Virus record (IMG/VR): IMGVR_UViG_3300030372_003961
Coordinates: 1-36,347 of that record
DNA: 36,347 nucleotides
Source: a virus
Lineage: Duplodnaviria; Caudoviricetes
Strand: one strand, 5' to 3'
Part shown: in pieces, positions 24,499 to 36,347 of the stretch
How the letters are laid out: each line of letters starts with the position of its first letter
How positions within the stretch are numbered: the first letter of the stretch is position 1
Notes under the pieces: generated by a model
Seen by the model: only the letters and a program-made list of their open reading frames with translations
The model's database searches: none
Told to the model about the DNA's origin: nothing
Program-made: the position numbers and the translations under genes

Positions 24499-24720
24499 TT
24501 AAGACCAATACCCATACTCAGACCTAGACGCAGACCTATACCCATGCCCAGACCTAGACCAAGACCTAGACCCATACTCAGACCTAGACCAAGACCTAGA
24601 CCAAGACCAAGACCAAGACCTAGACCTAGACCCATGCCCATACCTAGACCAATACCCAGACCTAGACCTAGACCAAGACCGAGGATTATCAAAACCCGCT
24701 CTCATTATTCCCGCGTTCAT
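24499..24720 (-). CDS. Leader + Ser-Trp/Arg/Gly repeat peptide, copy 2 (73 aa)
   Basis: MNAGIMRAGFDN then SWSRSRSGYWSRYGHG...; ATGA overlap with copy 1. Confidence 0.7.
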   Translation of the reverse strand: MNAGIMRAGFDNPRSWSRSRSGYWSRYGHGSRSRSWSWSWSRSWSRSEYGSRSWSRSGHGYRSASRSEYGYWS

Positions 24721-24962
24721 AAGCTACTCCCAGACCTACACGCAGAACTATACCTAGACCAAGACCTAGACCCATACTCAGACCTAGACCAAGACCCAGA
24801 CCAAGACCAATACCCAGACCCAGACCTAGACCAAGACCAAGACCAAGACCGAGGATTAGACCCAGACCAAGACCAAGACTCACACCCAGACCCAGACCTA
24901 GACCCAGACCCAGACCAAGACGCTAAATTATCAAAACCCGCTCTCATTATTCCCGCGTTCAT
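24500..24962. repeat. Hexamer microsatellite (GACCNA)n in two blocks plus exact 36-nt direct repeat
   Basis: GACCAA/GACCTA/GACCCA units; ATTATCAAAACCCGCTCTCATTATTCCCGCGTTCAT at 24685-24720 and 24927-24962. Confidence 0.95.
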
Positions 24963-24965
24963 CAT
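24717..24965 (-). CDS. Leader + Ser-Trp/Arg/Gly repeat peptide, copy 1 (81-82 aa)
   Basis: (M)MNAGIMRAGFDN then LASWSGSGSRSG...; start overlaps the stop of 24962..25294. Confidence 0.7.
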   Translation of the reverse strand: MMNAGIMRAGFDNLASWSGSGSRSGSGCESWSWSGSNPRSWSWSWSRSGSGYWSWSGSWSRSEYGSRSWSRYSSACRSGSSL

Positions 24966-25294
24966 TTTTGTTCGGTTGGTAAAGGGTGGTCCCACGGTGC
25001 AAAATTTATCAATGACGCCATATTTACGGTGGTGCCATTTGGATATGGCTCTACCTCTGACAATGTGCCGTTTTTAAGGCAGTCATGATAACGGCCTGTA
25101 TCAGCTACCCAGCTTGCTGTTTTTAGCGTCACAAAATTACCGCAAACGCTTACAACCTCGCCAAGCTCAATATGCGTCACAGTTCTAAACAAATACGCCT
25201 TTCCTATCTCAACCGGACACTCACTGGATGCAGATGATTTAAGCTGATTTCCGTCTAATAGATCTAAAATATTTTTAATTTGTTCAATGTTCAT
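24962..25294 (-). CDS. DUF6948-like small beta-barrel (SH3/Sm-like) phage protein
   Basis: IGKAYLFRTVTH..GEV....VTL..ASWVADTGR.......G...EVEP pattern, recognised from memory. Confidence 0.6.
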   Translation of the reverse strand: MNIEQIKNILDLLDGNQLKSSASSECPVEIGKAYLFRTVTHIELGEVVSVCGNFVTLKTASWVADTGRYHDCLKNGTLSEVEPYPNGTTVNMASLINFAPWDHPLPTEQK

Positions 25295-25609: not shown

Positions 25610-25665
25610 ATACATTTGTATGCCAATTATATTAGTTGACAGTACATACAAATGTCAACTATTAT
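25610..25665. promoter_or_regulatory. Overlapping divergent sigma70 promoters with operator-like inverted repeats
   Basis: Plus: TTGACA 25636-41, TATTAT 25660-65; minus: TTGACA 25658-53, TAATAA 25634-29; ACATTTGTATG 25612-22 / CATACAAATGT 25645-55. Confidence 0.75.
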
Positions 25666-26004: not shown

Positions 26005-26412
26005 ATGATCGACATTTTAGAAAAAATTAAACAGGAAGAGGGCTTTGAGTCCGAAATGTACGACTGTCCCGCTGGTTATAAAACTATTGGTTACGGGATC
26101 AATCTTGAGACCACACCGATACCCGAGCCAATCGCCAAAGCGTGGACTAAGCATCTAATCAACGGCTTAAACTTGAATATGGCTGAACATGATTGGTATC
26201 GCAAACTGAGCCATGACCGTCGTATGATTATTTTAGATATGTGTTATCAGATGGGTGTGAGTGGCGTACTCCGATTTAAAAAAATGATTACAGCTATAGA
26301 GGGTGGAGATTACGAGGAGGCCGCCGACCAAATGATGGACAGTAAATGGGCGCGTCATGATTCACCCGCCAGAGCGTTGAGAAATGCAACTATTATGAGG
26401 GATGGCGAATGA
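26005..26412 (+). CDS. Endolysin, GH24 (T4-type) lysozyme
   Basis: EEG...YDCPAGYKTIGYG catalytic motif; DMCYQMG, FKKM, SKWA. Confidence 0.9.
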   Translation: MIDILEKIKQEEGFESEMYDCPAGYKTIGYGINLETTPIPEPIAKAWTKHLINGLNLNMAEHDWYRKLSHDRRMIILDMCYQMGVSGVLRFKKMITAIEGGDYEEAADQMMDSKWARHDSPARALRNATIMRDGE

Positions 26413-26921
26413 ACGATTGGAAAAAGATTATATCTAGTGTTGCGCCTACTTTGGCAACCGCTTTAGGTGGCCCATTGGCAGGGACAGCGACAAAATATTT
26501 AACATCCGCGCTGTTAGACGACAAAGATCAGGATTTGGAAGATGTCATTTTAAGCGCTAGCCCTGAAAAGCTCGCACAAATAAAAGAAATCGAAGCCAAA
26601 TTTAAAACCGATATGAAAAAACTTGATATTGATATCGAGTCTTTAGCAGTTAATGACCGTAAAAGTGCTAGACAATTAGCGGCTAAAAACATGGCACCCC
26701 AAATAACGCTGTCCTTCCTGTTTATATTTGGCTACTTTTTTATTATTTGGGTCTTGTTTTCTGGCGCTGTGACGATGCCGGAACAAATTGGTCATATGTT
26801 GTCTGCCATGCTTGGCGTATTAACGAGTGGCATACCTATGATATTAAGATTTTGGTTTGGCGGCTCTCTACACGATAAAGATCATATGGATAAAATTTAT
26901 AGGTCTACCCCTAAATCATGA
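26409..26921 (+). CDS. Putative holin (3TM/GTA-holin-like)
   Basis: APTLATALGGPLAG N-terminus, DRKSAR, two TM helices, FWFGGS; coupled to endolysin. Confidence 0.7.
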   Translation: MNDWKKIISSVAPTLATALGGPLAGTATKYLTSALLDDKDQDLEDVILSASPEKLAQIKEIEAKFKTDMKKLDIDIESLAVNDRKSARQLAAKNMAPQITLSFLFIFGYFFIIWVLFSGAVTMPEQIGHMLSAMLGVLTSGIPMILRFWFGGSLHDKDHMDKIYRSTPKS

Positions 26922-29362: not shown

Positions 29363-29454
29363 AGCCAAGCACAACAAAGATTACATCAAGAACGGGCTAG
29401 AAAGTGATAGCGCTAAGCTGGCCAGAAAAGAAAGAGAAAAAGAAGGTGGAAGAG

Positions 29455-29790
29455 ATGAACAAAAAAGAATTGCTAGAAAAGTTTGAAAAGCTTAATGCTG
29501 ATGCTAAAAACGCAGAATGCAACAACTGCTACAACTGCAACTACTGCAACTACTGCAACTACTGTTACAAATGCAACTACTGCAACAACTGCTACAAATG
29601 CGTCAACTGCAACTACTGCAACAACTGCAAAAACTGCCACAACTGCTACAAATGCAACTACTGCGACGAATGCAACAACTGCATTTTATGCAAAAATCTA
29701 AAAGGAAATCGCCACGGTTATTGGCTATTAAACGAACTAGTTACAAGAGAAGAGTTTGAAGCAGCTAAACAGGCTTTAAAAGGTGAATAG
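29455..29790 (+). CDS. Cys-triplet (CxxC)n repeat protein with 20 Cys
   Basis: C at every third residue encoded by 9-nt repeats; charged N-helix; C-terminal YWLLNELVTREEFE. Confidence 0.75.
   Translation: MNKKELLEKFEKLNADAKNAECNNCYNCNYCNYCNYCYKCNYCNNCYKCVNCNYCNNCKNCHNCYKCNYCDECNNCILCKNLKGNRHGYWLLNELVTREEFEAAKQALKGE
29518..29691. repeat. 9-nt tandem repeat (TGC-NAC-NAC)n
   Basis: tgcaacaac/tgcaactac/tgctacaaa units; all three plus-strand frames open. Confidence 0.9.
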
Positions 29791-33022: not shown

Positions 33023-33340
33023 GTGCCGTCGTTGGAGGTTAAACACCCTATAAGGTTCATCGCTTCAACGCTTAGCGGGGTTGTGGCGTTGAACTTCGTA
33101 TTCACGGCGGGGTTTGTTTATAACAATCTTGACAGGGATTGGGCAAAGCTAAAAGCTTACAAGGAAACGATAAAGAAAAGCGCTCAAGATCGGATAGATG
33201 ACCTTGAAAGGATATTGGAGCTAGAAAAGGAATTAAAGCGTGTAAATATTGAGCTTAAGCGGCTGGAAGCTCATCAAAAAAATAGGGATGAGCAAGTAAA
33301 CGACCAGTTAAGGCATATTAATCAAAGGTTAAATAGGTAA
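33023..33340 (+). CDS. TM + coiled-coil protein
   Basis: One hydrophobic helix followed by heptad repeats; TAATG-coupled to the giant ORF. Confidence 0.55.
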   Translation: MPSLEVKHPIRFIASTLSGVVALNFVFTAGFVYNNLDRDWAKLKAYKETIKKSAQDRIDDLERILELEKELKRVNIELKRLEAHQKNRDEQVNDQLRHINQRLNR

Positions 33341-36300
33341 TGGCGGCATTAGTAGCTAATCTTGATCAAGCAGCGGCGCTCGATAATACCGACATGACTT
33401 TAGCCGCAGTTGCGGGCGCTGATTATGCGTTTCCAACTGACGGCGGTAGTCAGCGAGGTATTGACGGCACTACAAACTGTCAGCAGCTTACTAATGAGGG
33501 TAACTCGCTTGTAGCTGATGACTGGTATTCTGGGTATGTAACGTTTGCGTCAAAAGATATGTCGAGCGTCGATCAAGCGTTTTGCATGCACTTTAAAAAT
33601 AATAGCCCGGACTACAATACAATAGCAGATATACGTGTAGCGCTTCGCTCTGGAACTGGCACTGCAAATTGGGGTGTTTGGAATGTTGGCGCTTCCGCAA
33701 CTATCAAAAACGGCTCATTCCACCCCATTATGATGGTTGGGACTCCCGATTCCGAAGTTGGGACTTTTGATAATACTGATGTGACGGGTTTTGCTTTTTT
33801 AGCCCAGGCTAGCGAAACCGGAGGTGCTTTTGGGTTTCAAATGTCGGTAGATCAGCTAGTTTACATTAACGGGCCAGCAAGATGTGGTGATACAGGGTCG
33901 CCCTCAACGGTCACGCTTGAAAATTATTTTGATTTACTCAAGCCCACATCTGGTACCACTTACCATAGTATGTTGGTTGCTAGAGCGGGTCCGACTATCG
34001 AGTTCGGATTTCCTATTGCTATAGAGTCTGATGATTATGACGACACTAGCGCAGCTTTAGGCATTGCGTTTAAAGAAGATGACGGGATCGCTTTTGGTGT
34101 TATGCCAGCAGGGTACTATCAGCTTGATATAACTGGTCAAGCCAGCGGCTCAATTGTAATAGAGAGTGCGTCTTTAGCTACAAACTCAACCGATTTTGAT
34201 CTCACGATAGACGGTTCCGCGGCAAGTACAAGTGTGACGATGACATCTGTGTTAATGGCAGGGGTTAGAAATGTCAGCATCACGGGTAGCGGTGTCACGA
34301 TGGAAGGTTGCACGGTGGCATCGCCTTTAACTTGCGAAATAGCTGAAGGAAATCTTGATATAACTATCACTGATAGTGCAGCGGCGATTGACTGGACGGC
34401 TGATATTGTGGCAGGGTCAACCATAACTACAGATTCAGACATAGATATTACGTTTTCTGAAACCGATCTTAGCGATATTAATATTGTTGTCACTGCAAAT
34501 AATACAATTACATTAAGTCCTGCAACTGCATCTGGTACGTATACCTTAACCGGATTATCTAGGGGTGGCGCTACAAGTATTGAGTTTGATAACGCTACAG
34601 CAAACAACACATCGTTAAGCGTATCATCCGATATTAATTCAAATAATACCGTGGCAAGTCCGACTTCTGGCGGTGGTACAGTCACGGTTTTAGGCCCTAC
34701 GGATGACTTGACAGTTAATTCTAGTGAAACGGGGTCTCAGATAATTGTATTTACGACCAATACACAAACAGAGCTAGATAGCGAGGCGTCCGCGTCCCAG
34801 TTAGTCTATTCACATGGTGGTGAAACTGTAGATATTACAGTGCTTAAAGATGGGTTTATCCCGTTTAGGCAGACAGGTTTAGTGTTGTCAGGCGACGTAA
34901 CTATTGACGCTCAACTGGTAAATAGCCGTGAATATGATTCCGGTCATGGATTAACGTATACGACAGATGCTAGCTGGTCACGAACAAATAACGAGCTAAC
35001 TGTACCAACGTTCGGGCCTACGGTTCAGGGAGTATTTAGCTTGATGATGGAAAGCTTCAGGACTCAGACCGCATTAAGAAACACCGCATTCAATTTAGAG
35101 ATGGACGGTATTAACACGCTTTATCTGGTTGATGACGCAGAGGGTAACGCAGACTCAAGCATCGAAAACATGACGCGTGGCGGTGTTGGTTACATTAATT
35201 CTAGCGGTACAGTCACGGCAGAGTGGTTTGCTGTTTTGTCAGTTGGCGATAATACAGCGGGCGAGACCGGCGAGTATCAACAGATTGATGGGTCAAACAC
35301 TACAGACGCAAGAGCGACCGGAAATTTTGACGAAATAGTCAAAATGTATGGTGATGCTACACACGGTAATTTTGATTATCGCGGTCATGCCGTATTTAAG
35401 TATCAAATCAATGGATACTATCAGGCTCGTATTGATGTTTTGGATTTGTTTGGGTTGTCAACGCTAACGCCAACGCTTTACACAATTCCGCTATCCCCGG
35501 CTGCTACAGGCATTGCTACAGGTGATCCCGCAATATCAATCACTATTACAGATCATACAGCCGCCCCAATTACAGTGGGCGGTAAGAGTTTTGATTATGA
35601 GGTGGTGGATAACGGCACAAACAGCGCTGAGGATATATTGAGAGAGATTAACTATAACCTTTCTCTTGATGCTACTTACCAGGGCAAAGACCCGTTTAAC
35701 TATCCCGATATGGTTATTGAGACGGGCGGCAACTATGAATCTGAGTATGGCCGAGTAGAGGGGCAAGATACTACAACGACGTACCATGGTTTTTATGTGT
35801 CGAGGTCAAGTTCTGACCATCCTGATTTCACTCGTTTTCAGTCGAATGACGGCACTTACTATACGCCAGCAGTTCAAAATCAGGCGACTATAACTAACTT
35901 ACCTACGGCGTCAGGAGCAGACACAATGCTTCAAATTTATAATAATACGACCTCAAGCGAGGTTTATGTATCAGACCCCGGGGGAGCTACATACAATGAA
36001 ATCTACACCGAGGGGACAAATTATTCTGACGGGGACGAAATAAGAATTAGATTTGCAGAGCTTGACGGTTCAGTTTCATTCAAAAGTTTTGAGACAATTG
36101 TCACCGCTAGCGCAACTGGATGGAGCTTAAACGCTGCAAACTTCTTAGTTTCTGACAGCGTATATGCCACTAACGCTGTTGATGGGTCGCAAGTAACTAA
36201 ATTTAATTATTCCGCAGTTGATGACCAGTTCAATTTGGCGGTAGCTCAAAACTTTAGCGCTGCAGAGGTTTTCGCTTTTTATTGTTCAACCTTGACCACT

Positions 36301-36347
36301 GCCGATGGAATAGAGGGTGCGTATGGGTCATTTGTTGCTGTCGATGA
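33340..36347 (+). CDS. Large acidic beta-rich virion/fibre-like protein (runs off the end; ~1121 aa if joined to 2..379)
   Basis: Uninterrupted frame MAALVANLDQAAALD...GAYGSFVAVD (1002 codons); T/S/D/G-rich; absent from ORF track because it has no stop in the window. Confidence 0.85.
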   Translation, partial: MAALVANLDQAAALDNTDMTLAAVAGADYAFPTDGGSQRGIDGTTNCQQLTNEGNSLVADDWYSGYVTFASKDMSSVDQAFCMHFKNNSPDYNTIADIRVALRSGTGTANWGVWNVGASATIKNGSFHPIMMVGTPDSEVGTFDNTDVTGFAFLAQASETGGAFGFQMSVDQLVYINGPARCGDTGSPSTVTLENYFDLLKPTSGTTYHSMLVARAGPTIEFGFPIAIESDDYDDTSAALGIAFKEDDGIAFGVMPAGYYQLDITGQASGSIVIESASLATNSTDFDLTIDGSAASTSVTMTSVLMAGVRNVSITGSGVTMEGCTVASPLTCEIAEGNLDITITDSAAAIDWTADIVAGSTITTDSDIDITFSETDLSDINIVVTANNTITLSPATASGTYTLTGLSRGGATSIEFDNATANNTSLSVSSDINSNNTVASPTSGGGTVTVLGPTDDLTVNSSETGSQIIVFTTNTQTELDSEASASQLVYSHGGETVDITVLKDGFIPFRQTGLVLSGDVTIDAQLVNSREYDSGHGLTYTTDASWSRTNNELTVPTFGPTVQGVFSLMMESFRTQTALRNTAFNLEMDGINTLYLVDDAEGNADSSIENMTRGGVGYINSSGTVTAEWFAVLSVGDNTAGETGEYQQIDGSNTTDARATGNFDEIVKMYGDATHGNFDYRGHAVFKYQINGYYQARIDVLDLFGLSTLTPTLYTIPLSPAATGIATGDPAISITITDHTAAPITVGGKSFDYEVVDNGTNSAEDILREINYNLSLDATYQGKDPFNYPDMVIETGGNYESEYGRVEGQDTTTTYHGFYVSRSSSDHPDFTRFQSNDGTYYTPAVQNQATITNLPTASGADTMLQIYNNTTSSEVYVSDPGGATYNEIYTEGTNYSDGDEIRIRFAELDGSVSFKSFETIVTASATGWSLNAANFLVSDSVYATNAVDGSQVTKFNYSAVDDQFNLAVAQNFSAAEVFAFYCSTLTTADGIEGAYGSFVAVD

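Follow-up and report, generated by a model that had tools for sequence, protein, structure and literature searches.

The locus and its genome setting

The window analysed here, 36,347 nucleotides long, is a whole IMG/VR virus record, 99% complete according to CheckV, and its gene content includes terminase, portal, head, replication initiator, DnaB, RusA and lysozyme genes. At least half of the region's words are present in six marine metagenome runs, drawn from three studies, and the best of these runs may be the source sample. The locus comprises three genes on the minus strand, with the following features:

24962..25294, minus strand: barrel gene, an ORF of 110 aa with a predicted Sm/LSm fold, in a sister family of DUF6948
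24717..24965, minus strand: peptide 1, 82 aa (counting the first of two Met residues), its start overlapping the barrel stop
24499..24720, minus strand: peptide 2, 73 aa, its start overlapping the peptide 1 stop
24927..24962, minus strand: 36-nt head, copy 1, from sequence comparison of the two peptide genes
24685..24720, minus strand: 36-nt head, copy 2, identical to copy 1, from the same comparison
24520..24921, minus strand: TCT-NGG hexamer array spanning both tails and broken by head copy 2, from Tandem Repeats Finder
25629..25658, minus strand: sigma-70-like promoter match (10/12), a consensus match only, overlapping a divergent one

The three reading frames, their translations and their stop/start overlaps are as originally described, with ATGA at the junctions. 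Peptide 1 (net charge +5) consists of the head MNAGIMRAGFDN followed by a (Ser-X)n tail, and peptide 2 (net charge +10) carries the same 12-residue head in front of a rearranged (Ser-X)n tail. The two genes are identical over exactly 36 nt from the ATG, again as described, and the description of the cores as TCT-NGG hexamers is correct; Tandem Repeats Finder gives a 6-nt period with 66.7 copies. The peptide genes also have in common a 45-nt and a 24-nt block further on, differently arranged. A segment of 24 codons between two Asn codons in copy 1 is absent from copy 2. The proposal that copy 2 is copy 1 with this segment deleted holds for the start of the tail, where DN-PRSW fits an indel, but not for the rest, which is rearranged. 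It is because of the missing segment that identity stops at 36 nt; the edge is an indel junction, and the sharp end of identity is therefore no evidence of the leader/core boundary that had been read from it.

The hexamer array is polymorphic amongst contigs of the same phage, which show 6-nt indels and other tails, several of them at low depth. In two other samples (X3 and X7), same-phage contigs join the barrel directly to a copy-2-type start, so that either deletion or insertion could explain the Asn-to-Asn indel. The X3 contig (11.5 kb) is identical over 474 nt on the barrel side and then runs through the head into the copy-2-type start and a different tail, and the X7 contig (246 nt, depth 3.7) has the same join. 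In-frame deletions of 6 nt occur in the tail in X2 and X6, at depths below 5. Long flanking contigs in X1 differ by 0-1 letters per kilobase, and a 91-nt contig from that sample runs without differences from the end of copy 1 into the head of copy 2. All of this strain variation is read from assembled contigs, in which the 36-nt repeat can mislead assembly, and the copy number per genome read from them is provisional. Run X20, presumed to be RNA, covered only repeat-like pieces from other sources and not the barrel. Overall, the window locus is an ordinary two-copy member of the module described below, and adds strain variation but little else.

Amongst the 87 viral loci of the set L001-L154, the contig ends within 600 nt downstream of the barrel in 18, and within the same distance upstream in five. 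Assemblies therefore frequently stop at the repeat, which probably makes the count of the module too low.

The leftward gene run that has the module close to its head continues through a PolB-like exonuclease and RusA. Overlapping divergent promoter matches, consensus matches only, span 25629-25665 ahead of this run, and the minus-strand match is likely to be the start of a leftward early operon holding the module. Eight such sites were found, against 14.6 expected in shuffles, which gives no evidence of promoter function. The predicted early-region position agrees with the gene layout (operon position and divergent promoter matches), from which we infer early expression of the module. Across loci, the module mostly lies inside same-strand gene runs (46/77), and 'first gene of the operon' was accordingly rejected as a general rule.

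Elsewhere in the window, a second low-complexity ORF (29404-29790, plus strand) has Cys at every third residue, with a 9-nt period, 18.4 copies and a non-repetitive end; it matches phrog_15341, of unknown function. A 1002-aa ORF at 33340-36345 (plus strand), open at the record end, is without a Pfam or PHROG match. Directly after the divergent promoter matches and a small gene that we read as HTH-like lie a lysozyme gene and a membrane gene that we read as holin-like (26005-26921, plus strand), a pair located away from the structural genes.

Barrel and Ser-X peptide amongst phages

The barrel was present in 150 of 154 loci fetched; one of these (L072) was dropped for a broken frame, leaving 149 loci in 119 clusters at 90% identity. 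A Ser-X ORF was found no more than 200 nt downstream of the barrel in 104 clusters, only upstream in seven and not nearby in three, and the other five had less than 150 nt of sequence left. The peptide is therefore linked to the barrel in 111 of 114 informative clusters, against nine of 904 control windows from the same loci. A head-pattern search supplied six of the 104 representatives; without these the figures are 98 downstream and seven upstream of 108. A single-pattern scan found 445 IMG/VR stretches with the barrel family, of which the best 80 were used, so that distant members are under-sampled. In the reciprocal direction, the barrel lies directly upstream in 11 of 13 loci picked by the head pattern alone, and the other two lie within 115 nt of a contig start. 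These counts bear out the original prediction of a two-component module with tight linkage in homologues, and a purely local microsatellite was rejected on the same figures.

The peptide start lies at offset -1 or +2 to the barrel stop in 75 of 104 clusters. The three clusters with no peptide nearby comprise one with a degenerate peptide (L009), one with a peptide 2.3 kb away (L112) and one with none (L122). Amongst 68 clusters with long flanks, 48 have one Ser-X ORF, 15 have two or more (two of the extra ORFs are Gly-X peptides and one is without a start) and five have none above a stricter cut-off. Copy number varies as predicted, from one to seven peptides per barrel, with the highest values in L119 (seven) and in L021 and L088 (five each). 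In L119 (2746-4200), the seven peptide genes are chained behind one barrel, and the last ones are degenerating. No third gene recurs amongst 1761 neighbouring ORFs of the 119 clusters, within flanks of up to 2-2.5 kb, many of them limited by the contig. Leaving aside two antisense shadows of the barrel, the neighbour families that recur most are found in 7, 6, 5 and 5 of the 119 clusters; the family of seven is a general phage gene, and that of six is mostly true DUF6948. Judged by gene linkage, the barrel and the Ser-X peptide constitute a widespread two-part phage module.

Within the 104 peptides, picked by a Ser-X-Ser pattern (86 complete; median length 65 aa), Ser occupies 2296 of 2405 alternate tail positions, and the 2301 X residues include 803 Arg, 685 Gly and 644 Trp. 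Every one of the 86 long tails contains Trp, while Arg is present in 85 and Gly in 83. Each locus uses essentially one Ser codon (mean 97%), namely TCG in 47 loci, AGY in 28, TCT in 18 and TCA in 11. On a tree of 97 barrels (23 AGY rows) there are 19 changes between AGY and TCN, which indicates that the arrays have been re-seeded many times, returning each time to Ser. Retention of Ser through disjoint codon families, together with Trp in 86/86 long tails, argues that the peptide frame is under selection.

Within loci, entropy is 1.52 bits at the N of NGG and 0.10-0.25 at the other five hexamer positions, and neighbouring X pairs are close to random. Selection thus appears to act on the composition of the tail (alternating Ser, with a mixture of Arg, Trp and Gly) and not on its order. 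The suggestion that the tail is diversified by slippage is supported, and the tail turns over rapidly. If Trp (TGG) is needed, the NGG pattern would follow, since Arg and Gly are one step away. A diversity-generating retroelement was rejected by reasoning, since variation affects the N of NGG and spares the A of AGC codons. The Ser codon TCC is almost unused in Ser-X tails (2/2296) and common in Gly-X tails; perhaps it is avoided because TCC-NGG would make CCNGG sites or hairpins.

The AlphaFold2 model of peptide 2 has a pLDDT of 48.2 and is helical only at residues 5-8, in the head. This is consistent with a disordered peptide, and also compatible with a polymer state. A search of the ESM Atlas with peptide 2 gave no usable match.

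A conserved head in front of a variable tail is seen within loci and clades, and several other head classes occur elsewhere. The head is clade-specific on this comparison and not the invariant leader originally envisaged: the motif R-x-G-aromatic/hydrophobic is found in 52/104 peptides, and the head is nearly absent in the DUF6948 sister family. Third codon positions vary freely amongst 33 motif-picked heads, and the constraint is therefore on the protein. Paralogous heads within one locus are alike. The head evolves faster than the barrel, with 48% head identity (ungapped, and so an underestimate) in 19 pairs whose barrels are 70-90% identical. Head classes, assigned from loose patterns that misfile some rows, cluster on the barrel tree (19 changes against a shuffled mean of 35.6), as expected from linkage alone. 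The top columns in barrel-head covariation (41-43) track clades and are inseparable from ancestry, and in a pN/pS comparison of heads, synonymous sites are saturated (0.77), with only weak purifying selection readable.

The barrel protein and its sister family DUF6948

The barrel was modelled by AlphaFold2 with a pLDDT of 88.6, and Foldseek matches to this model are nearly all Sm/LSm chains (best E 5e-4). VIA-align placed yeast SmF first (rmsd 2.1 over 65 aligned residues) with a Z of 8.6, little above the range of 7-8 described as common for this tool; the lower ranks include Edc3, MnxF, Hfq and GerQ, and 3by7 at Z 5.6. The predicted model has the five-stranded bent barrel typical of Sm proteins. 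The protein is thus predicted to have an Sm/LSm fold, in keeping with its original description as small and beta-barrel-like. A sequence search of the PDB gave no match, the barrel and peptides have none in Pfam, NCBIfam or PADLOC, and the only match in PHROGs is a weak one to phrog_10894 (E 0.005).

Conserved barrel positions are R37-T40, G45, W62, D65-R68, E80, E82 and D97, and include an RTVT loop and an SWxADTGR...EVEP insertion. In Sm proteins the RNA-contact motif lies in loops 3 and 5, as Asp/Asn and Arg-Gly respectively. When mapped from predicted strands, the conserved residues of the barrel fall for the most part outside loops 3 and 5, within loop 2 and a long insertion in loop 4. 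With loops taken from predicted secondary structure, RG before the last strand is present in 22 of 120 relatives and absent in the window barrel, and the positions of loop 3 vary. Most of the residues by which Sm proteins usually contact RNA are missing from the family. The Sm loop geometry used for this mapping is that given in the accessible part of PMC3710371.

Three proteins (P0124, P0125 and P0127) are double barrels, a hint that the barrel may oligomerize. In P0272, the one longer fused form amongst 7994 candidates scored, the barrel is fused behind pentapeptide repeats, and P0191 carries a head and a short Ser-X stretch at the N-terminus of its barrel. Close relatives of the barrel number 396 amongst 399 candidates, and the family has 1847 representatives at 50% identity. 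Amongst 50,697 GenBank phage records there is one relative, itself uncultured; the family is large, yet almost absent from these records.

The barrel was originally called DUF6948-like, and membership of DUF6948 (PF22253) does not stand: none of 120 relatives matches PF22253 (E 0.1), and the PF22253 HMM, at its curated cut-off of 27 bits, has no match in the window barrel nor elsewhere in the genome, whereas four of four positive controls score 48.6-97.4 bits. Alignment of the two families by hhalign gives 95.5% (E 1.5e-8, 80 columns, against a 4-sequence profile), fold matches named DUF6948 in BFVD have E values of 3e-4 to 4e-3, and an ESM Atlas cluster links the barrel to DUF6948 at 0.90. 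The barrel family is a sister family of DUF6948, within the same superfamily.

The statement that DUF6948 genes adjoin Gly-repeat ORFs proved accurate. Amongst 54 DUF6948 loci, forming 40 clusters, an overlapped Gly-X peptide was found in 39 of the 40 clusters, so that an ORF with a variable S-x or G-x core accompanies the barrel in both families (111/114 for Ser-X). The Gly-X peptides are acidic, X is mostly Ser, Tyr or Asp, and the head is usually very short. In four of 29 complete Gly-X peptides the sequence continues into a long C-terminal region; in L192, L193, L194 and L203 the repeat runs on into a further 84-154 residues.

The two families thus have in common a homologous barrel, an N-terminal LT-x-G helix in many members, and the layout of a barrel overlapped by a dipeptide-repeat peptide. 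They differ in that Ser-X barrels have an acidic ASWIADTGR...EVEP where DUF6948 has a basic ARRIWYW...SLSQ, and in that the Ser-X partner is a basic Ser-(R/W/G) chain with a head of 10-14 residues, whereas the DUF6948 partner is an acidic Gly-(S/Y/D) chain with a very short one. The mean net charge of the barrel core is -1.9 in the Ser-X family (97 barrels), where all 86 peptides of 86 are positive, and +1.2 in DUF6948 (30 of 40 clusters), where the peptides are acidic. Barrel and peptide charges are therefore opposite in both sister families, although the p value of 2e-8 for this contrast is overstated, there being effectively two families and not 127 independent points. Ser-X and true DUF6948/Gly-X modules lie side by side (within ~1 kb) in L088, L089, L098 and L123, and the Gly-X peptide of L088 grades into a Ser-X (Ser-Arg) tail. 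What unites the superfamily is thus the alternating repeat and not the head, and the barrel may accordingly read the repeat as well.

Possible function of the module

It is probable that the barrel and the peptide are physical partners. The function of this partnership is much more doubtful, since the RNA pocket lacks conservation and the sister peptides, being acidic, would not bind RNA, so that a function common to both families may be something other than RNA binding. Our tentative preference, held with considerable doubt, is for a split Sm-plus-RS-tail protein that forms a multivalent RNA-binding assembly early in infection. According to this scheme, the barrel would oligomerize and the short peptide head would dock on it, while the acidic conserved surface on the L4 side (W62, D65, E80 and E82) would engage Arg and Trp of the tail. 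The Arg and Trp residues that remain free would bind RNA and link barrels to one another, and the resulting condensate or chaperone-like particle might handle or shield early phage RNA.

There are precedents for parts of this scheme. Sm proteins carry RG tails (accessible part of PMC3710371), and Sm proteins of Borgs carry repeat-derived disordered arms (accessible part of PMC9879509). The module resembles Sm, LSm and Hfq proteins with low-complexity tails (SmD1/D3/B, Borg Sm and the cyanophage Sm-like ECX21941, PDB 3by7) in its predicted Sm fold and its association with an Arg-rich or repeat-derived chain, here predicted to be disordered. It differs in that the chain is a separate, multipliable gene and in that the barrel, known here from sequence and model, mostly lacks the usual RNA-contact residues and has a long conserved L4 insertion. 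The LSm folds of Edc3 and LSM14 (Scd6) are amongst the structural matches of the barrel (6f9w, 2vc8 and 6y3z). The LSm domains of Edc3 bind short motifs that are helical, and they drive phase separation (accessible part of PMC4320757). The head is the only part of the module peptide predicted to be helical. Edc3 and LSM14 are, however, eukaryotic decapping factors whose ligands are leucine-rich helices in large proteins, and the likeness is one of fold. A fold held in common does not by itself establish a function. The module is not described in the literature searched (subscription journals and supplements lay largely outside its scope), nor is it mentioned in the accessible part of a survey of prokaryote low-complexity sequences (PMC6821194).

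The layout of the locus, with the barrel first, the peptide second and the two coupled, is also that of an effector and its chaperone, although such a layout is unspecific. In a type II toxin-antitoxin-like arrangement, an Arg/Trp-rich peptide would inhibit the host (its ribosome, nucleic acids or membrane) unless restrained by binding to the acidic barrel. Arg/Trp-rich and Arg-dipeptide peptides can be toxic to cells, and the opposite charges and early-operon position would suit such a pair. Up to seven peptide genes per barrel (L119) would be odd for a neutralized toxin, the acidic Gly-X sister peptides are not toxin-like, and Pfam, PADLOC and NCBIfam offer no match; we regard this explanation as unlikely.

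The turnover of tails even amongst contigs with an identical barrel, the amplification of peptide genes, the early region and the abundance of modifiable residues (Ser/Arg, or Ser/Tyr in the DUF6948 sister) could be those of a counter-defence decoy, in which the barrel displays or stabilizes a rapidly changing peptide that acts as a sink for a host sensor or a modifying enzyme such as a kinase, ADP-ribosyltransferase or protease. A hexamer repeat gives variation anyway, however, and the same amino-acid alphabet across very distant phages fits a physical property better than an arms race. The odds seem clearly against a decoy.

RiPP precursors have a leader with RRE-type recognition, and the RiPP recognition element (RRE) is a winged-helix fold. 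The module peptides resemble such precursors in their several copies, each with a head constant within loci and a variable body, and the original prediction drew on this logic. In such a system, leader recognition would fall to the barrel, and modification of the Ser-rich core would precede its release. The gene neighbourhood does not support this, since no modifying enzyme, protease or transporter recurs near the 119 clusters and no third gene recurs within 2-2.5 kb, the largest real family (7/119) being a general phage gene. The barrel has a predicted Sm fold and not a winged helix, the DUF6948 sister is almost without a leader, and no common cleavage motif is seen, all of which makes a RiPP-like system very improbable.

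We give equally little credence to recoding, by which slippage into the -1 frame at the barrel stop would join barrel and Ser-X tail in one chain, an ordinary tailed Sm protein. The peptide is in the -1 frame in 75/104 clusters. In 33 of these 75, the window included, the barrel gene ends in the codons CAA AAA, which would permit slippage in the P site; different codon pairs stand there in the remaining 42. In addition, 29/104 peptides start further away (up to 172 nt), the peptide is only upstream in seven clusters, extra copies each have their own head, and amongst 263 listed barrel proteins there is no C-terminal fusion, the one N-terminal case being P0191.

That there is no peptide at all, the repeat being a microsatellite, an RNA or DNA element with GG every 6 nt, or an other-frame protein (Gly-Leu/Gly-Ala in +1, Pro-Arg/Pro-Ala antisense) with N as its wobble base, is extremely improbable: X codons are NGG in 2094/2301 cases, N falls at the third position both in the +1 frame and in the antisense frames, 65/104 loci have one open antisense frame and TCC is avoided, but the fixed codon is Ser in two disjoint codon families with many switches, other-frame products differ between loci (GL, GA, RG and VG), in TCA-type loci (11/104) the antisense Pro frame is interrupted by stops, only 2/104 loci have a +1 frame that is open from the start, head codons vary at third positions and the locus has no match in Rfam.

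The split Sm-plus-RS-tail reading can be extended to the sister family as a phage superfamily of split Sm systems. Here a barrel oligomer would read a dipeptide repeat as Sm rings read RNA, with each subunit taking up one Ser-X or Gly-X unit, and the systems would come in two versions of mirrored charge: an acidic barrel with a basic Ser-Arg/Trp chain, and a basic DUF6948 barrel with an acidic Gly-Tyr/Asp chain. This is speculative, and we think it improbable as it stands. If it were true, a phage could use its separately encoded, slippage-tuned chains to assemble and readjust a protein-RNA condensate or filament in a bacterial host, and RS-domain-like chemistry would exist in viruses of bacteria. 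If the barrel does bind the peptide, this module of ~800 bases would be an enzyme-free system of two genes in which an Sm fold is paired with a disordered, RS-like chain, as is known from eukaryotic RNP granules, and the binding would provide the first functional handle on DUF6948.
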